From Minisyncoccota bacterium (GTDB lineage Bacteria; Patescibacteriota; Minisyncoccia; Phycocordibacterales; UBA2100): DNA of 64,000 nucleotides. A program made the position numbers and the translations under genes. This document shows positions 8,844-61,164 of this stretch, piece by piece (within the stretch, counting starts at the first letter, position 1; the number at the start of each line of letters is the position of its first letter). The notes under the pieces were generated by a model, which made no database searches, had not been told where the DNA came from, and worked only from the letters and a program-made list of their open reading frames with translations. The DNA lies in NCBI GenBank assembly GCA_035500505.1, contig DATJXE010000006.1:30037-94036 (forward strand). The letters run 5' to 3'.

Positions 8844-10289
8844 CTACTGCGCTCCCACTTTTGGTGCAAGCTTCTTCCCTAGACGTACGACGGGGGCGGA
8901 TATTTCACGTACCTCACGGGCCCGTTCCTTGATGTCGATAGGGTACCGCCCGGTAAAACACGAGGTGCACAGGCGCTCTTCCGGAACGCCGACCGCGCGG
9001 ACGAGCCCTTCGTAGGAGAGGTAATTGAGCGTCGTCGCGCCCAAAAAATCCCGGATGTCGGGCACGGACTTGGTCGCCGCGATGAGGTTCGCCTGCGCGG
9101 GAGTGTCGATGCCGTAAAAATCCGGATACAGGACGGGCGGCGAGGAAACGAGAAAATGCACCTCCTTCGCGCCCGCTTCGTAGAGCATGGCGACGATCTC
9201 GCGCGAGGTCGTGCCGCGGACGATGGAGTCGTCAAGGACGGCGACCCGCTTGCCGGCGAGAACTTCGGGGATGGGCGTCAGCTTCGCCTTCACACCTTGC
9301 TGTCGCATGTGCTGTTCCGGTTGGATGAACGTGCGGTGGATGTAGCGGTTCTTCGCGAGTCCCATTTCGAACGGGAGGCCCAAGCTCCCCGAATAGCCGA
9401 TGGCTGCGGGAATGCCGGTTTCGGGCACGGGAATGACGACGTCGACCTCAAGCGGAGATTCCTTGGCGAGCTCCATGCCGGAGCGGCGACGCACTTCATA
9501 GACCGATTGCCCCAAAAGGACACTGTCGGGCCGCGCAAAATAGACGAACTCGAACACGTCGAATTTCGGATCGGGCTCGGCAAGACACATCCCGCGCATG
9601 CCACGGGAATCGACGACGACCATTTCGCCCGGCTCGACCTCGCGCGCAAGCGTCGCGCCCAGAGGCGCGAGCGCGCAGGTTTCCGATGCGAAGACCCAGC
9701 CGCCGTTGAGGCGCGCCATCGAGAGTGGGCGCACGCCGCACCGATCGCGAAGCGCGATGAGCTTGTCGCGGGACATGATGAGGAGCGAGAACGCGCCGGT
9801 CATGAGCGGGTAGACTTCTTTGACCGCCGCGTCGACGCTCTTCCCCTCCTTCACGAGCGCGCCGACCGCCTCCGCTATCATGCGCGAGTCGGAAAAACTC
9901 GTTCCGTCGATCCCCTTTTCCTGCAAAAATCCCTCGAGCGCGGCCGTCGAGGGAAGGTTGCCGTTGTGCGCGAGCGTTATGGTGTCTTCGCCGCATTCGA
10001 CGATGACCGGCTGCGCGTGCTCGAGCTTCGAGCCGCCCGCGGTCGAATAACGATTGTGTCCCATCGCGATATGGCCCGTGAGTTTCTTGATGTCGTCTTC
10101 GGTATAGACCGAGGACACGAGCCCCATCGCCTTGTGGCACCGCACTTGCGTACCGTCAGAGACCGCGATGCCGGAACTTTCTTGTCCTCGATGCTGGAGC
10201 GCGTAGAGGCCGAAGTAGGTTAGCCGCGCGACGTCGAGGCCTTTTCCGTAGACCCCGAAGACCGCGCATTTCTCCCCGAGTTCTGCCAT
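8844..10289 (-). CDS. purF: Amidophosphoribosyltransferase
   Basis: MAELGEKCAVFGVYG gives an N-terminal Cys nucleophile (class II GATase). A PRTase domain is present, including VVVDSRGM-like and DDSIVRGTTS motifs. Confidence 0.9.
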   Translation of the reverse strand: MAELGEKCAVFGVYGKGLDVARLTYFGLYALQHRGQESSGIAVSDGTQVRCHKAMGLVSSVYTEDDIKKLTGHIAMGHNRYSTAGGSKLEHAQPVIVECGEDTITLAHNGNLPSTAALEGFLQEKGIDGTSFSDSRMIAEAVGALVKEGKSVDAAVKEVYPLMTGAFSLLIMSRDKLIALRDRCGVRPLSMARLNGGWVFASETCALAPLGATLAREVEPGEMVVVDSRGMRGMCLAEPDPKFDVFEFVYFARPDSVLLGQSVYEVRRRSGMELAKESPLEVDVVIPVPETGIPAAIGYSGSLGLPFEMGLAKNRYIHRTFIQPEQHMRQQGVKAKLTPIPEVLAGKRVAVLDDSIVRGTTSREIVAMLYEAGAKEVHFLVSSPPVLYPDFYGIDTPAQANLIAATKSVPDIRDFLGATTLNYLSYEGLVRAVGVPEERLCTSCFTGRYPIDIKERAREVREISAPVVRLGKKLAPKVGAQ

Positions 10290-10306
10290 GGTTCGATTAT
10301 AGCATC

Positions 10307-10413
10307 AGAGCCCGCCCCACCGGCATTTTTGACGACTGAGAATCTGATTGCGACGGCCGCCCTCAGGCGGCCTAGAGTCGGAAGTCGTCAAAAATGCCGG
10401 TGGGGCGGGCTCT
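10307..10413. repeat. Perfect 31-bp inverted repeat (AGAGCCCGCCCCACCGGCATTTTTGACGACT and its reverse complement) enclosing a 45-nt spacer that itself contains a GGCCGCC/GGCGGCC mini-hairpin
   Basis: Read directly: arms at 10307-10337 and 10383-10413. It lies 10 nt downstream of the DUF1003 gene stop and immediately upstream of a TATAAT box 6 nt before the purF ATG. Confidence 0.8.
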
Positions 10414-10422
10414 CGTTCAGGA

Positions 10423-10827
10423 CTACCGACCTTCAAGTATCCTGAGTATCTTCTCCAACTTATCGTCCTCGATGCGCGCAAGCCGCTTTTGCAGGTCTTC
10501 TATTTCGAGTTTGGCGCGGACGTTGGTCTCATAGTCAGCCTCGGCTTGGCGCCTGTCGCGATCGGCCTGCCTGTTCTGCGATTGCATGATGATGGGCGCG
10601 GCGTAGGCCGCCTGCGTCGAGAAGAGAAGATTCAACAGGATGAAGGGATAGACGTCCCAGTGGTAGAACCAGCCGGCGAGATTGAGCGCGACCCACAGAA
10701 CGACGAACGTGGACTGCGAGATGATGAAGCCCCAGGAACCCATGCGTTTCGCGACCGTGTCGGCGAGACGGTCGCCGAACGAGAGGCTCTCGACATGTTT
10801 TTGGTGCCAGTTCTTTTCCGTACCCAT
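10423..10827 (-). CDS. DUF1003-family membrane protein
   Basis: GSWGFIISQSTFVVLWVALN...YPFILLNLLFSTQAAYAAPIIMQSQNRQ matches the DUF1003 signature, with a C-terminal coiled coil. Confidence 0.6.
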   Translation of the reverse strand: MGTEKNWHQKHVESLSFGDRLADTVAKRMGSWGFIISQSTFVVLWVALNLAGWFYHWDVYPFILLNLLFSTQAAYAAPIIMQSQNRQADRDRRQAEADYETNVRAKLEIEDLQKRLARIEDDKLEKILRILEGR

Positions 10828-10859
10828 GATGGCTCAAGTATAGCCCACTGCGGGGCCCA

Positions 10860-12014
10860 TCACTGATATTGGATGAATATCGGCGCAGGCGTGAGCGAGA
10901 GGACCTCTGCGGGCGTCATGAGGCGATACGCGGGCGCCTGGAGGTCTGCTTTGTAGAACAATTTGAAGCCCGTGAATTGCACCGGCTCCGGCGCGATGAC
11001 CTGCTGATAGGTGTTGACCTTCTTGGCCGGGAATCCCCAACCGTCCATGTCCATCACGACCTGCACTTCGGGGAGCGGCGTTATCTTTTTGTAGTTCGTC
11101 ACCATGTCTTCGGTGAAGCGGTGCACGATGAGTATCTTCGGCGGCAGATCGTTCGCGTCTACGATGCTTGCCATGTAATTCGCGACCCAGTTGATGTCGC
11201 TCGCATCATACGTGCCTATTTCCCTTCCCGGCGGCGTACCGTCTTTCATCGAAAATTCCGGATCGATGGCAAGTTCCACGTTCGGCAGTTCCAAATATTG
11301 TTTGAAAAGCGGTATCTCGGTCTGGACGTTGGAAAGCCCGACCTGTATGTCGAATATAACGAGGCCGTGTATCTGGTTTGCCATGTCTATCGCTTTCTGT
11401 ATCTGACTATCAGGCATGCGCGCGCGATACATGCCGTCGCTTCCGGCGGAACCTTGCGCCGTCACAGCAATGTAATCGATGGCGGGGATGACCGGCGTCG
11501 AAGGATCGGCCGCTTCCCATTGCCTGGTGGTCGAGGCGAGCATCGAGAGCACCTGGTCTTGCGGATATTCTCCGAGCACTCCCATTGCGGTCGAATAGAA
11601 GTTGCCATAGTAGGCGACGATGCGGTTGAACGGCAGGATTGCTCCCGCGTTGGGATATGTCCGGTGCACCGGCCAGAGGGGCTTCGGGGCCGAGGTCGTC
11701 GCAACATTGCCCTGCGCGTCGATGGGGGTCGTGGTGCCGGCTAGGAAGGCGTTGTACCAGGGGCTCGATGTGGCGACGTGCGCGAGCGCAAGCAGCTTTT
11801 CGTTGTAGAGTCCCTTATTGAGCGGCGGGGGTGGCGGATCGGAAGGCGTCGAGGTCGCGTCGCCGCGATCGTATGCAAGCGGCGCGCCCAAGAGCGAGAC
11901 CGAGTACACGTTGCCGATGGAGAGGAAGAGAATGGCCAGCGCACAAGCGAACACGCCGCCTAAAATCGCGAGCCACCAGCGCATGTTGCCCCTGCCATCC
12001 GATCTCCGAGCCAT
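10860..12014 (-). CDS. Hypothetical membrane-anchored protein (possible TIM-barrel glycosidase-like fold, uncertain)
   Basis: 384 aa with an N-terminal TM anchor. No confidently recognised motif. Confidence 0.45.
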   Translation of the reverse strand: MARRSDGRGNMRWWLAILGGVFACALAILFLSIGNVYSVSLLGAPLAYDRGDATSTPSDPPPPPLNKGLYNEKLLALAHVATSSPWYNAFLAGTTTPIDAQGNVATTSAPKPLWPVHRTYPNAGAILPFNRIVAYYGNFYSTAMGVLGEYPQDQVLSMLASTTRQWEAADPSTPVIPAIDYIAVTAQGSAGSDGMYRARMPDSQIQKAIDMANQIHGLVIFDIQVGLSNVQTEIPLFKQYLELPNVELAIDPEFSMKDGTPPGREIGTYDASDINWVANYMASIVDANDLPPKILIVHRFTEDMVTNYKKITPLPEVQVVMDMDGWGFPAKKVNTYQQVIAPEPVQFTGFKLFYKADLQAPAYRLMTPAEVLSLTPAPIFIQYQ

Positions 12015-14935: not shown

Positions 14936-15445
14936 TCAGTCGGAAAACGCGGATGGCACGTGAGCGACGATCGTGTCTCCGAGCAAGCTCAAAAATTCTT
15001 CGCGGCGCGCCTCCATGTCCGTCTCCATGATGTGGGAGATGGGGTAGCACTCCGGCGTGTATTCGTAGTGGGCCCGGACTTCTCTGTCTTCGAAGACGCG
15101 CACGTGATACTGGTACGCGAAACCGTCCGTGTAGCGCAGGCTCACTACTTCCCCGTCGTCCTTCCACGCGACGAAGTGGTTGCCATACCCCTTTCCGAGA
15201 AGGTGCGAAATGAATTCCGGAATGGAGAGGTGCGGCGCGATCGTTCCTATCAAAAAATCCTGTCTGCCCTCGTGGCGGACGACGCGCAGCCGAAGCGCCG
15301 TGTCCCGCACGAGGGGGTGGTATGGCGTGTAGAACGTCCAAAAGAGATACTTCACGCGGTCCCAGAGTTGCTCTGGATACACCATCGCTGAAGCGGGCAG
15401 GCTGTCGTACCAATCCCGGGCTTGAAGTTCGGTTCCTGCCTGCAT
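14936..15445 (-). CDS. Hypothetical protein
   Basis: A 169-aa ORF with coding-like composition and no recognised motif. Confidence 0.4.
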   Translation of the reverse strand: MQAGTELQARDWYDSLPASAMVYPEQLWDRVKYLFWTFYTPYHPLVRDTALRLRVVRHEGRQDFLIGTIAPHLSIPEFISHLLGKGYGNHFVAWKDDGEVVSLRYTDGFAYQYHVRVFEDREVRAHYEYTPECYPISHIMETDMEARREEFLSLLGDTIVAHVPSAFSD

Positions 15446-15555
15446 AGAAAACCTCTCTATTGTACCCGTTTCAGGAGATGAAAAAGGGAGATGTCCACAA
15501 CCGGTCGTTTTACCGCCACTCCTTCACGATAGCGAGCTTCGCCCCACGACAGCGC

Positions 15556-16068
15556 CTATTGCACGACGAGGGCGCCGTTCTCGACCTTGAGGTACTTTGA
15601 TACGCCGACGCTCGGCTGCGCGGTCATCGGCTCACCAGGCTTGCGGTCCGCGTAATTTACAATGACTTCCCCGCCCTTGATCTCGGTCGTCTGTGGCGCG
15701 ATGCGATCCCCGAGAAGCACGGCGTTCGTCCCGGTATACGTTCCGGCGGAACTCCGAAGAGCGGCGACGACGTAATAGAACGTTCCGCTTCCCCCGCTGT
15801 TTTGCGTGAGGATGAACGCGACGTCGGGCAGGCCGTCGCCGTTCAGATCCCCCGTCGCGTCATTGCCGAAATAATCCGTCAGCACCTTTGAAGCCGAGCC
15901 GGGAGCGGCGGGTACTTCGGAATGCCCGTTCACGAGCGTCACCGGTTGCCCCTCAATGACGTACGTCGCGTTTTTGTAGTCCGCAGGAGTCACATGTCCG
16001 CGCATCAAAAACCACGCCCCGCCGACAACAACAACGAGAAGCGCCAGAACAATGACGACTGTTTTCAC
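15556..16068 (-). CDS. Hypothetical membrane-anchored protein
   Basis: MKTVVIVLALLVVVVGGAWFLM anchor followed by a Gly/Thr-rich domain. Confidence 0.45.
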   Translation of the reverse strand: MKTVVIVLALLVVVVGGAWFLMRGHVTPADYKNATYVIEGQPVTLVNGHSEVPAAPGSASKVLTDYFGNDATGDLNGDGLPDVAFILTQNSGGSGTFYYVVAALRSSAGTYTGTNAVLLGDRIAPQTTEIKGGEVIVNYADRKPGEPMTAQPSVGVSKYLKVENGALVVQ

Positions 16069-16122
16069 ATGCGGAGTATACCACCGAACGAACAGCCACG
16101 CGCCGAGTGGAGGCTGCGCGCG

Positions 16123-16575
16123 CTAGCTCTTTTTGGCCCTGGGGGTAACGGTTTTATTGCCATCAGAGGTCACTACGATCTTCCCTTCGGGTGCGGTCCA
16201 ATCGGTAAAGCGCCACCACGTAGGCGTGAACATGAACATGACCGCGTTCGGGTCGTGGAGCTTACCTTGTTTTTTCGGAAACTTTGCCAAATAAACCATT
16301 TTCAGCTTCTCGTCCGCAAGAAGCTGCGCGGTACCGTCAAGCTGGAGAGTCTTCATCTCGCTTTCGTTCGACCCAACGACCATGGAGGCGCGGGAAATTT
16401 CTCTACCAACGAGCGCCTCGGTTTTTCGATACCCCTTTTCCGTTTCAAATATGAACACGAGTTCGTCCGTGTTCGCAAAATGTACGGTCGCGGCGTGGGG
16501 AGAACCGTCCAGCATTTCTATGGCAAAGACGCCCACTCGTTGTCCTTTCAGATATTCAAGAATCTCTGGGGTCAT
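16123..16575 (-). CDS. Pyridoxamine 5'-phosphate oxidase-like FMN-binding family protein
   Basis: 150 aa. The pattern GQRVGVFAIEMLDGSPHAATVHFA...ELVFIF is typical of the PNPOx-like split barrel. Confidence 0.5.
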   Translation of the reverse strand: MTPEILEYLKGQRVGVFAIEMLDGSPHAATVHFANTDELVFIFETEKGYRKTEALVGREISRASMVVGSNESEMKTLQLDGTAQLLADEKLKMVYLAKFPKKQGKLHDPNAVMFMFTPTWWRFTDWTAPEGKIVVTSDGNKTVTPRAKKS

Positions 16576-16650
16576 GCCGTAATACTACCCTACTGACGGA
16601 GCTTGGTACGACATTGGAATCTTTTTGTAATGAGGGAATGAGCTGATCAG

Positions 16651-16962
16651 TCAGACTTTTCGGCGAGATTTGGATCGTTTCTTGAGAACCCAGCGCACCG
16701 AGCGACTTATCGATTTGTCGGTGCGGTGGATGCAACCGATCCAACAACAGGGCCGGCGCATTCCTTCGATGAGCTCTGATACCACTCTCCTCACATGATC
16801 CTTTCGCGTCTCTGCCGTTTTGACCGAAATGGTCCAGCAGATCCATTCGTTGCGCGCAAGAGGAGTGATGTCCTCCCACGCCGCACGCGCTTTTGGCGAG
16901 GCGACGAGCGCCTTCTTCAAGTCTGCAGGCAAGGTATGCGCGGTTCCCGAAGATAGTTTCAT
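16651..16962 (-). CDS. YdeI/OmpD-associated family protein
   Basis: ARNEWICWTISVKTAETRKDHVRRVVSELIEGMRRPCCW matches the family signature. Confidence 0.55.
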   Translation of the reverse strand: MKLSSGTAHTLPADLKKALVASPKARAAWEDITPLARNEWICWTISVKTAETRKDHVRRVVSELIEGMRRPCCWIGCIHRTDKSISRSVRWVLKKRSKSRRKV

Positions 16963-17023
16963 CTACTCTATTGTAACAAATCCTCCTTTTTTAACTGGGG
17001 TCTGGGACGACGTTGGAACCTTT

Positions 17024-17368
17024 TTAGACAAGAAAGTGGCTGTAGAGAGTAATTGCTAAGGCGCAGACTACAAAAGCTGTCGAGCCGATTGCCCAGAAAG
17101 AATTCGGCAAGTTCCGCAAAGGACTTGGCGCATAGTAACCTAACCACGTCGCATCGTAATTTATTTCAGGATGTATTTGCTTTCGTAAAGTGAATTCCCA
17201 CGTGCTCAAAATGCAGCACCTAAAGACTGCGTATGATGCCGCGGTAACAACCAAAACTGCAAAATAAATTTGCCACCAACTTGGTATGAGCCACCCAAAC
17301 AAAATAAAAAGCAGTATTGCTACGTGAAAAAATAATATTACTTCAGCGAGAATTCTTTTGCTGGTCAT
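17024..17368 (-). CDS. Small polytopic membrane protein (DUF2784-like?), low-GC gene
   Basis: The ORF is trimmed to the ATG at 17368 (MTSKRILAEV...) because the longer ORF overlaps the tRNA. Local GC is about 42% against about 60% in the surroundings. Confidence 0.45.
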   Translation of the reverse strand: MTSKRILAEVILFFHVAILLFILFGWLIPSWWQIYFAVLVVTAASYAVFRCCILSTWEFTLRKQIHPEINYDATWLGYYAPSPLRNLPNSFWAIGSTAFVVCALAITLYSHFLV

Positions 17369-17380
17369 GAATTTCGTTAA

Positions 17381-17451
17381 CTGGGGGACATGGACTCGAA
17401 CCATGATTCACAGCTCCAAAGGCTGCTGTCCTACCATTAGACGATCCCCCA
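17381..17451 (-). tRNA. tRNA-Gln (anticodon TTG)
   Basis: The reverse complement reads TGGGGGATCGTCTAATGGTAGGACAGCAGCCTTTGGAGCTGTGAATCATGGTTCGAGTCCATGTCCCCCAG. It has a 7-bp acceptor stem with a U1-A72 pair, the GGTTCGAGTCC T-arm, and a CTTTGGA anticodon loop. CCA is not encoded. Confidence 0.85.
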
Positions 17452-17529
17452 AACACGACTGATAGTAACAAAAAAACGGCTCGTTGGAACGCGCTGGCCA
17501 CTGAATCTTGTTTCGGGTAAAATCGACCG

Positions 17530-24155: not shown

Positions 24156-24178
24156 CAACAAGCGCTTCTTCACTACTG

Positions 24179-24210
24179 GGCGGCCCAACGGGCCGCCCTT
24201 TCCTTTTTAT
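24179..24210 (+). terminator. Intrinsic terminator GGGCGGCCC-AAC-GGGCCGCCC followed by TTTCCTTTTTATT
   Basis: Read directly: a 9-bp perfect GC stem with a T-run on the plus strand. Confidence 0.7.
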
Positions 24211-28325: not shown

Positions 28326-28343
28326 GTTCTGTTGCGTTGAGTT

Positions 28344-28370
28344 GCCCGGCACTTGTCGGGCATCTTTTTT
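28344..28370 (+). terminator. Intrinsic terminator (GCCCGG...CCGGGC stem then ATCTTTTTTA)
   Basis: Read directly. Confidence 0.55.
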
Positions 28371-32156: not shown

Positions 32157-32160
32157 GGAG

Positions 32161-32287
32161 CAGCCCGCTTACACATCCTCTTTACTTTCCACTTTCGATA
32201 AAGCAACCTTTCGCCCTCAGGGTCCGGCACAGATATGGACGCCGAGGTGAAATTGAACACGAGTAAAGAGGATGTGTAAGCGGGCTG
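32161..32287. repeat. Hairpin element 1: perfect 26-bp inverted repeat (CAGCCCGCTTACACATCCTCTTTACT and its reverse complement) around a 75-nt loop
   Basis: Read directly: arms at 32161-32186 and 32262-32287. Confidence 0.85.
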
Positions 32288-32297
32288 CCATTGGTCG

Positions 32298-32429
32298 AGG
32301 TGGCGCGGAGTGGGTCGTTTTTGCTATCTTCTTCGAACAAAAAGACTTTTATATATGTGCCGGACCCTAACGTGAAGTTACAACATGCTCGAACGCGAGA
32401 GGGCAAAAACGACCCACTCCGCGCCACCT
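32298..32429. repeat. Hairpin element 2: perfect 27-bp inverted repeat (AGGTGGCGCGGAGTGGGTCGTTTTTGC and its reverse complement) around a 78-nt loop; loop segment 32357-32368 is complementary to loop segment 32219-32230 of element 1
   Basis: Read directly: arms at 32298-32324 and 32403-32429. The right arm abuts the parB stop codon. Confidence 0.85.
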
Positions 32430-33372
32430 ACACCGAAAAATTCGAGATAGAGTACAGGTCGTCGGACCCGTCACTTGCGGACCCTTGAGGAGCAGATGGT
32501 TCCTCCCCGACTTGCTCGGATGGCGCGGAAGCGGGCGGTTGCGTGGCGCCCGCGCGAGAGACCATGTCGCGGATGTGCGCGAGATCGTCGACGGAAAAGA
32601 ATTCTATCAACACCTTCCCGCCCTGATCCTTTTTCTCGATGCGCACGCGCGTGCCGAATTTTTCGGTAAGTTCGCGCTCGAGGAGAAGGAGTTCCGGCGT
32701 GAGGTCACCCTTGCGCGCGCGCTCCGTCGCGATCCGCCGCGCCATTTGTTCGGTATCGCGCACAGTGAGACGCTTGGCGATAACTTCTTTGAAAAGCGTC
32801 ACCTGTTCGGCCGCTCTGTCCATGAGCATCAGAAGAGGCCGCGTGTGACCTTCGCTTATTTCCCCGCTCGAAAGCGCGTCTTGCATTTCTTTGGGCAACC
32901 CCAAGATGCGCAGCGTGTTGGAGACGTACTCGCGACTCTTACCGACTCGTTTTCCTATCTCGGCATGCTTCAGGCCGAACTCGTTCGCGAGGCGCTGGAA
33001 AGCCAAGGCCCGATCGATCGGGTTCAGATCTTCGCGTTGTAAGTTCTCGATGATGGCGATCTCGAGTTTCACCCGGTCGGAATCTTCGGCCGTGCGGATG
33101 ACGACCGGCACTTCGCGCACGCCGGCCATCTTCGCCGCGCGAAGCCTTCGCTCGCCGGCTATCAGTTCGTACTCGACGGAAATACCTTCCCCAGGCCGTT
33201 CTATCTCTTTGCGCGTAACAGTAAGGGGTTGGAGAACGCCATAGCTGCGTATCGACTCCGCGAGGGACGCGAGCGCAGCCTCGTCGAAAGTCTTTCGCGG
33301 CTGGAACGGATTGGGTTTTATCCTTTCAACCTCGACCCAAAAAATGGAATCATAGCGTCCATTACCTGGCAT
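32428..33372 (-). CDS. parB: ParB/Spo0J chromosome partitioning protein
   Basis: ParB N-terminal box (GERRLRAAKMAGV...), HTH, and C-terminal dimerisation region. No parA is adjacent on either side. Confidence 0.85.
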   Translation of the reverse strand: MPGNGRYDSIFWVEVERIKPNPFQPRKTFDEAALASLAESIRSYGVLQPLTVTRKEIERPGEGISVEYELIAGERRLRAAKMAGVREVPVVIRTAEDSDRVKLEIAIIENLQREDLNPIDRALAFQRLANEFGLKHAEIGKRVGKSREYVSNTLRILGLPKEMQDALSSGEISEGHTRPLLMLMDRAAEQVTLFKEVIAKRLTVRDTEQMARRIATERARKGDLTPELLLLERELTEKFGTRVRIEKKDQGGKVLIEFFSVDDLAHIRDMVSRAGATQPPASAPSEQVGEEPSAPQGSASDGSDDLYSISNFSV

Positions 33373-60416: not shown

Positions 60417-60420
60417 ATAC

Positions 60421-60741
60421 CTATTTGATGATCGCTAAAATGTCGGATTCCTTTACGAGGAAATATGCCTCGTCGTCCTCGCCGATGTCGACTTCGTTGT
60501 CCCAGCCGGCGTTGAAGTACACCTTCGAGCCGACCTTGACCCTCGTCGGGACGAGCTTGCCCTCTTCGTTCATGTTGCCCGGGCCGACGGCAATAACGAC
60601 GCCTCGCTTGGACTTTTCCTTCTCCGCCGTGTCGGGGATGATGATGCCCGCGACCGACTTTTTCTCCGGCTTGTCCTCACGCTTTACGAGCACGCGATCG
60701 CCGACCGGTTGGATATTTATTTTCTTCGTTTCTTTTGCCAT
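60421..60741 (-). CDS. groES: Co-chaperonin GroES
   Basis: [23 protein letters not shown]...GIIIPDTA...; trimmed from the longer track ORF. Confidence 0.92.
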
Positions 60742-60810
60742 ACGAATCAGTTTTAGCTCAATAAATAACGACTTGGGACGTGTCCGGCATTGGCCGAACG
60801 TCGCGCACAA

Positions 60811-60838
60811 TATATAGAAAAAAGGAGGGTGAAGTCAA
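60811..60838 (-). promoter_or_regulatory. Sigma70-like promoter of groES-groEL (TTGACT-N16-TATATA on the minus strand); no CIRCE inverted repeat detected
   Basis: Read directly from the reverse complement, about 65 nt upstream of the groES ATG. Confidence 0.45.
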
Positions 60839-60852
60839 GGAAATCAGCAGTT

Positions 60853-60881
60853 GCATTCCTTCTTTTCCCGTGCTACGATCG
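60853..60881 (+). promoter_or_regulatory. Putative promoter TTGCAT-N17-TACGAT ending 5 nt before the secG ATG (leaderless-like)
   Basis: Read directly. Confidence 0.35.
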
Positions 60882-60886
60882 TCCCG

Positions 60887-61120
60887 ATGGTTTTTCTCCA
60901 GGCAACGCTGCCGTACGTGCAGATCATCCTGTCCGTGCTCATCATCGGGAGCGTGCTTCTGCAGCGCACGGGGGCTTCCTTGGGAGGCGCCTTCGGAGCC
61001 GACAACTTCAGCTCCGGCTTCCACACCCGCCGCGGGCTGGAAAAGACCCTCTTTTACACGACCATCGTTCTTGGTATACTGTTCGCGATAAGTGCGTTAG
61101 TCAGTTTGCTTATTAGGTAA
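60887..61120 (+). CDS. secG: Preprotein translocase subunit SecG
   Basis: ILSVLIIGSVLLQRTGASLGGAFGADNFSSGFHTRRGLEKTLFYTTIVLGILFAISALV is the SecG signature with two TM helices. Confidence 0.8.
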   Translation: MVFLQATLPYVQIILSVLIIGSVLLQRTGASLGGAFGADNFSSGFHTRRGLEKTLFYTTIVLGILFAISALVSLLIR

Positions 61121-61164
61121 TTCCGCGAGCCCGCCCGGGTTTCGCGCCGCCCTTTCGGGGCGTT

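Follow-up and report, generated by a model that had tools for sequence, protein, structure and literature searches.

The long inverted repeat between the DUF1003 gene and purF, referred to here as E1, belongs to a family of palindromic hairpin elements, 107–139 bp long, that is specific to one small clade of Kaiserbacteria-like CPR bacteria within Candidatus Paceibacterota. The family is undescribed and of a known kind, that of the intergenic palindromic hairpin elements. We favor, with slightly less than even confidence, the explanation that E1 is a lineage-specific palindromic 3'-end element, whose RNA hairpin would protect, process or insulate the end of a transcript and which is occasionally duplicated. 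The window is the whole stretch of DNA that was analyzed (64 kb). Positions are counted along its plus strand, and the gene strand at E1 is the minus strand. The features at E1 are:

8844–10289, minus strand: purF, downstream of E1, ATG at 10287–10289
10296–10304, minus strand: inferred purF promoter, an extended -10 (TGC-TATAAT) 6 nt before the purF ATG, with no -35 match
10307–10337, minus strand: 3' arm of E1 in minus-strand reading, 100% complementary to 10383–10413
10338–10382, minus strand: apical module of E1, 45 nt, type A, reading TCCGACTCTAGG-CCGCCTGAGGGCGG-CCGTCGCAATCAGATTCTC on the minus strand
10383–10413, minus strand: 5' arm of E1 in minus-strand reading, beginning 9 nt past the DUF1003 stop codon (10423–10425)
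10423–10827, minus strand: DUF1003 gene, upstream of E1 (Pfam E = 1.8e-35)

The initial annotation had described a perfect 31-bp inverted repeat with a 45-nt spacer, and a repeat search confirmed arms of 31 nt each that lie 45 nt apart and are 100% complementary. The mini-hairpin read in the spacer is likewise present, with 7 bp formed by GGCCGCC (10355–10361) and GGCGGCC (10366–10372) on either side of CTCA. On the plus strand the 3' arm consists of a copy-specific GC-rich outer stem (10307–10325) and TTTTTG (10326–10331), followed by ACGACT. Along the minus strand the DUF1003 stop codon is followed by 9 nt, the E1 hairpin, GA, TGC-TATAAT, 6 nt and the purF ATG. When searching the window with the arm sequence and allowing up to three mismatches we found only two sites, which are E1 itself, while none was expected from 100 shuffles. 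The calculated RNA folding energy of E1 is -83.6 kcal/mol for the minus strand and -88.6 kcal/mol for the plus strand, with z-scores of -11.2 and -13.0, respectively, and none of 200 shuffles was equally stable. E1 also represents the most stable 150-nt stretch of the window (-96.9 kcal/mol vs a mean of -48.1, sd 9.0), and among all gaps in the window the lowest folding energies per nucleotide were determined for the gap bearing E1 and for that bearing the elements E2 and E3 described below. A coding potential of the E1 module was rejected, as two frames contain stop codons and the third has no start and a TGA just upstream.

It had been suggested that E1 could be a third member of a genome-wide hairpin family and that it shares its layout with two elements at 32161–32429. 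Within the 64 kb of this genome that were covered, membership of a family is supported, and it could be extended to other species: E2 and E3 each have 27-nt perfect arms and a long apical module, all three elements of the window follow one architecture, and a homologue of the E1 module is present in another species at a different locus (L105). E2 and E3 together fill the 271-nt gap between the convergent genes relA/spoT and parB in the window. Both elements are listed here together with the corresponding gaps of the relatives:

32160–32288, plus strand: E2, 27-bp perfect stem (32160–32186/32262–32288) with a 75-nt type B module, 3 nt past the relA/spoT stop codon
32293–32434, minus strand: E3, 27-bp perfect stem (32298–32324/32403–32429) with a 78-nt type B module and imperfect extensions
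L107/L108, ParB identity 83%: parB-relA gap of 12 nt, no hairpin
L105/L106, ParB identity 85%: gap of 116 nt, one hairpin with 29-bp perfect arms and a 53-nt loop
L109/L110, ParB identity 83%: gap of 154 nt, one hairpin with a 23-bp perfect stem (31 nt at 90%) and a 93-nt loop
L105:10957–11067: the L105 element, module at 10986–11038, between convergent parB and relA
L109:1126–1264: the L109 element, in the parB-relA gap

Beyond the perfect 27 nt the arms of E3 extend to 37 nt at 89%, and the base of E3 touches the parB stop codon (32428–32430). The modules of E2 and E3 have the motif AGGGTCCGGCACAKATAT in common (17/18), in inverted orientation. The type B module contains GGUCCGG, whose resemblance to SRP RNA was rejected for lack of support in Rfam. 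The purF, ParB and DUF1003 proteins of the window are 100% identical to those of a Candidatus Paceibacterota MAG; the next relatives show identities of 79–85%, and those that are named are Kaiserbacteria. Among the roughly 120 close ParB homologues, one on the P0127 contig is accompanied by a gap of 114 nt. The hairpins are not assembly artefacts, since L105 and L106 as well as L109 and L110 agree base for base in independent assemblies.

The five elements (E1, E2, E3, L105 and L109) derive from three species and show perfect stems of 23–31 bp and loops of 45–93 nt. When aligned at the T-run, the helix measures 25–26 bp from its base to the G following the T-run in 5/5 elements. It is built from about 20 copy-specific GC-rich bp and then an inner turn, in which T4-5G of the 5' arm is paired to CA4-5 of the 3' arm; E2 shows TCTTTA where the others have TTTTTG. 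Each element starts 0–9 nt past a stop codon (5/5). The combination of a Watson-Crick helix of this length, the T4-5G/CA4-5 turn, a module of 45–93 nt and this spacing to the stop codon is thus found in all five, with the TCTTTA variant in E2. A search of the window and of related CPR loci, which amount to about 150 kb, revealed neither further copies nor stem-less relics of the modules.

Homology between the copies is concentrated in the module. The E1 module as read on the minus strand and the L105 module are identical at 38/45 positions (84%, p < 0.0005, no shuffle as good), and BLAST aligned the E1 core to L105 with 85.7% identity over 56 nt (E = 5e-8). The mini-hairpin is kept between the two through one compensatory swap from C-G to G-C, and its single-stranded flanks are conserved. 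The inner stem TTTTGACG is common to both, whereas the outer approximately 20 bp (19 bp of each E1 arm) are essentially unrelated. An extra pairing on the opposite strand of the type A module was discarded because its register is not kept between E1 and L105. Judged from the sequence of this homologous module at parB-relA, E1 is not tied to purF. No similarity was seen among the modules of type A, type B and L109.

Such a distribution of conservation raises the question of a small-RNA precursor, whose stem would serve as the stalk at which a double-strand-specific RNase cuts during processing, as in rRNA precursors, and whose module would be the product or a protein-binding site. The far better conservation of the E1-L105 module than of the outer stem, the compensatory change in the mini-hairpin next to conserved single-stranded flanks and a constant 25–26-bp helix, long enough for double-strand RNases, are all consistent with such a precursor. 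We nevertheless consider it improbable, as the three kinds of module do not resemble each other, no promoter or terminator consensus belonging to the element itself was detected, and Rfam offers no match for such an RNA even at E < 10. In the window only two tRNAs reach the Rfam gathering score; the best local matches at the elements (E = 0.85–9) score far below it, and none is cis-regulatory.

In the five-element alignment 123 of 125 pair cells are Watson-Crick pairs, and the two G-U pairs are both located at the inner end of L109. Two to four pair types, and hence at least two, occur in 23/25 pair columns. If a G-U frequency of 5–8% is assumed, the probability of zero G-U among 122 pairs amounts to approximately 4e-5 to 2e-3. 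This near absence of G-U makes the constraint look symmetric between the strands and points to the DNA level rather than to selection on RNA only. Two causes come into question: folding may be required of both transcripts, a plausible demand where genes converge, or the two arms may correct each other at the DNA level. The same pairing would be expected of a DNA-level site, at which a cruciform or single-strand hairpin would serve recombination, loop inversion or replication and the arms would be recombination substrates. An AT-rich inner stem would favor extrusion, and the modules of E2 and E3 are oppositely oriented. A loop of 45–93 bp is however very short for enzyme-mediated inversion, no recombinase was found nearby among the window ORFs, and the orientation of the module is identical in both independent assemblies of each relative, so that we regard a site of this type as quite improbable.

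Stems and modules do not tell the same history. The left arms of positional orthologues show a weak but significant similarity (L105-L109, p = 0.0035; L109-E3, p = 0.0185), and AGCCCGC is common to E1 and E2 in the same register. By their stems, E1 falls together with E2, and L105 with both L109 and E3; by their modules, the pairs are E1 and L105 on the one hand and E2 and E3 on the other. On thin statistics this disagreement suggests exchange between copies or a mobile core. It also counts against a simple model of an old functional RNA, which does not predict it. The motif strand of the module runs in the direction of the abutting gene, for type A in E1 with DUF1003 and in L105 with parB, for type B in E3 with parB and in E2 with relA; in this small sample the match is no more than suggestive.

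The putative purF promoter is distinct from E1 and lies 2 nt downstream of its base. We compared the region to three relatives, L084, L085 and L086, with purF identities of 80%, 79% and 85%. All three carry TG(C/T)TAnAAT 9–10 nt ahead of the purF ATG, the equivalent in the window being TGCTATAAT (window 10287–10304; L084:9981–10003; L085:9983–10003; L086:4984–5003). A consensus scan of the E1/purF region revealed no -35/-10 pair, and the idea of a promoter inside E1 was rejected on this ground. The conservation of TG(C/T)TAnAAT suggests that transcription of purF starts from an extended -10 promoter, shared with the relatives and lacking a -35, and that the start is almost leaderless. An extended -10 only 6–10 nt before the ATG and the lack of a visible Shine-Dalgarno sequence suggest that purF mRNA is leaderless or nearly leaderless in this clade. 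The promoter-proximal arm of E1 contains an A-run at 10389–10393 on the minus strand, -41 to -37 from the purF ATG. This roughly corresponds to the position of a proximal UP-element subsite, and it is a speculative idea that E1 might influence the strength of the purF promoter.

Ahead of purF the three relatives show a GC hairpin that is short and has a T-run, and the extended -10 comes next as in the window. No long palindrome is found ahead of purF in any of them, and none was found anywhere in L081. A terminator scan of this slot called a gene-strand terminator in L084 and L085, and in L086 one on the opposite strand only; the gene-strand T-run of L086 was read by eye and not called by the scan. 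E1 thus occupies the slot of the upstream gene's terminator and lies neither inside a leader nor within the conserved promoter. At 10150–10560 of the window the scan detected 0 terminator sites. The sequence following the E1 stem is GAUGCUAUAAU, which contains no T-run, and none of the copies has a U-tract after the stem; the T-run is located within the 5' arm instead, which makes classical intrinsic termination unlikely. Genuine terminators with T-runs are present elsewhere in the window, for example at 24178–24198 and 28343–28362. Perfect spacer-less palindromes of the terminator type, 30–42 bp in length, were observed at L084:13556–13597, L084:16563–16597 and L105:9223–9252. They consist of an A-run, a GC stem and a T-run with extra outer pairing, and hint at a clade-wide tendency towards perfect palindromes.

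The initial annotation had also considered a terminator or attenuator and a large operator palindrome controlling purF. What stands of the former is the position between a stop codon and the purF promoter, in the slot that holds a terminator in the relatives. Like bidirectional intrinsic terminators, the elements lie directly after stop codons and between convergent genes, and their pairing is symmetric on both strands. Their dimensions are far beyond those of such terminators, with a stem of 25–31 bp vs about 7–14 bp and a loop of 45–93 nt vs 3–8 nt, and their T-run lies inside the 5' arm rather than after the 3' arm. E1 is not an attenuator, because it is located upstream of the purF promoter and not in the leader. 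The operator was not upheld: the L105 homologue at parB-relA is nowhere near purF, purF of the three relatives has the same promoter without a palindrome, and the outer 19 bp of the arms are unconserved. An ordinary intrinsic terminator, attenuator or purF operator is therefore very improbable.

The gene upstream of purF varies by genome and encodes Nramp, a tRNA_edit-domain (PF04073) protein, a 417–419-aa protein or, in the window, DUF1003. Since it is different in every relative, E1 is located at a gene-content breakpoint. When window positions 10423–12014 are compared to L081, L084, L085 and L086, the content between a conserved 376–387-aa gene and purF differs everywhere, with GDH-Nramp, additionally TrpR/LDcluster4/tRNA_edit, or the 417–419-aa gene in the relatives and DUF1003 only in the window. 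The nearest homologues of the DUF1003 protein are 76% identical, and many at about 70% come from Bacteroidota; judging by these similarities, DUF1003 may have replaced the former content by horizontal transfer. We rejected the possibility that E1 travels with the DUF1003 gene, given that its nearest homologues reach only 76% identity and that in L111–L113 the gene is part of a tight operon lacking a hairpin.

Copies have been gained, as indicated by their spread to non-orthologous sites and by the empty site of L107, which makes an origin of the selfish MITE/REPIN type likely. A stronger version, according to which E1 is a purely selfish, non-autonomous palindromic element tolerated at gene ends and without a host function, appears somewhat unlikely to us. 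It would explain a homologous module at non-orthologous loci in two species, the resemblance of L107/L108 to an empty parB-relA site and of E2 to a clean extra insertion relative to L109, as well as the position of E1 at a breakpoint where DUF1003 stands in place of GDH-Nramp between the 384-aa gene and purF. Size and long terminal inverted repeats also recall Correia elements and REPINs (PMC2649163, PMC3116915). Such an element should, however, acquire mismatches by decay, yet all five stems are perfect. Moreover, the arms are unconserved between copies, near-identical copies were not found, none of the five elements is flanked by a visible target-site duplication, no mobility domain was detected in the window ORFs, and phage and plasmid collections and viral contigs gave no match (see below).

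Correia elements are Neisseria MITEs of about 100–155 bp, in which long terminal inverted repeats enclose a core that is conserved. They lie beside genes and are co-transcribed, their hairpins can be bound or cleaved by RNase III, and they are able to adjoin promoters or to create them (PMC2649163). The E1 family resembles them in size, terminal inverted repeats, core and gene-adjacent placement. The Correia repeats are sequence-conserved across hundreds of copies, whereas here the outer arms differ per copy, only the core and the inner turn are shared (TTTTGACG alone between the arms of E1 and L105), and three unlike copies lie within 64 kb. REPINs have two inverted arms that flank a short spacer and together yield a hairpin of about 100 nt; they lie outside genes and persist for a long time in a lineage (PMC3116915, PMC3337134). 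Layout and extragenic placement of E1 are similar. The arms of REPINs are however short imperfect palindromes, present in many near-identical copies and accompanied by a single-copy RAYT gene, while the E1 arm recurs nowhere else in the window (self-pairing of the arm was judged by eye), the arms of E1, E2 and E3 differ from each other, and no Y1-transposase domain was found among the window ORFs. Pfam detected no transposase, RAYT, reverse transcriptase, integrase or recombinase domain in the approximately 60 ORFs of the 64 kb, which represent ordinary housekeeping content. E1 hence has the layout and placement of Correia elements and REPINs and lacks their defining features, namely conserved arms, a high number of copies, duplication of the target and, as far as the window is concerned, a RAYT gene. 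A retron msr/msd was rejected as well, the loop being too short and no reverse transcriptase having been found in the window.

The attC site of integrons is an imperfect to perfect palindrome of 57–141 bp directly after an ORF and is recognized by structure more than by sequence. E1 is also a palindrome directly after an ORF. It differs from attC in having no RYYYAAC/GTTRRRY core sites or extrahelical bases and in its perfectly paired arms, which begin with AGAGCCC; neither an integrase nor a cassette array was found in the window.

We also searched sequence collections for further members. A scan of genome contigs based on purF returned only genomes outside the CPR and AT-rich CPR genomes that are distantly related (59% identity) and have no hairpins of this type. 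A metagenome scan for the blocks shared by E1 and E2, AGCCCGC...GCCCTCAGG...GCGGGCT, yielded 17 matches, all of which lie in GC-rich DNA, lack a long stem and are due to chance. This pattern represented the E1/E2 blocks and not the type A core, and was in hindsight the wrong one. In viral contigs no match was obtained for the type B 18-mer, the three-block pattern, mid-arm 20-mers of E1, E2 and E3 or the type A core, so that a reading of the arms as phage-matching, spacer-like sequences is not supported. Comparison to phage and plasmid collections by blastn gave nothing meaningful. In the literature on CPR/Patescibacteria we found nothing relevant to such elements.

Under the favored explanation of a 3'-end element, E1 would form the 3' end of the transcript of the gene ahead of it, in this case DUF1003. 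The very stable RNA hairpin would define or protect this end, acting as an exonuclease block, as substrate of a double-strand-specific RNase or as a roadblock, and it would insulate the next unit by shielding the purF promoter from read-through. New copies would arise rarely, when the whole palindrome is duplicated or transposed, and complementarity of the arms would be kept either by arm-to-arm correction at the DNA level or by the need for both strands to fold. The architecture, the cross-locus homology of the module in another species and the placement directly after stop codons support this explanation. The lack of a U-tract, the low number of G-U pairs, the finding of only five elements, with no further copy in about 150 kb and chance matches only in the metagenome scan, and the disagreement between stem and module relationships count against it.

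A more far-reaching reading, which we think unlikely, is that the family constitutes a new class of modular element in this CPR clade. Here a sequence-conserved apical module would sit on a sequence-free stem of fixed length (25–26 bp), kept Watson-Crick by arm-to-arm correction at the DNA level, and modules and stems would be reshuffled between copies. The class could be either a new mobile unit or a protein-recognized 3'-end signal used in place of intrinsic terminators. The genomes of CPR bacteria are very small. To our knowledge non-coding repeats are rare in them and their transcript-end signals are essentially unstudied. The family therefore offers a concrete, testable handle on how these bacteria end or process transcripts, and bears on how long perfect palindromes persist in a bacterial chromosome. 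Such palindromes are also predicted to be likely break points in metagenome assembly.

Further observations concern other parts of the window and the relatives. At L105:6782–9197 miaA and parB are separated by an insertion with genes for a CD-NTase/SMODS-like protein, an HTH protein and several small proteins of unknown type. This insertion, which has no counterpart at the equivalent place of the window, may represent a defence islet of the CBASS type. On the plus strand of the window an ftsZ-like ORF (MAKSVKPDVESFARIRVVGVGGSGGNAV...) starts at about 39551, after ftsA, so that the long minus-strand ORF at 39636–41615 is probably spurious. Inside this minus-strand ORF, positions 39826–40000 are very rich in GC and fold strongly. 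Regions in which no gene could be called with confidence are unusually long (530, 840 and 748 nt) within 15392–17436 and 60417–61164, one of them adjoining tRNA-Gln (17380–17452). The GC content falls to 0.53 at 16–18 kb, and the cumulative GC skew shows a peak at about 14–16 kb.
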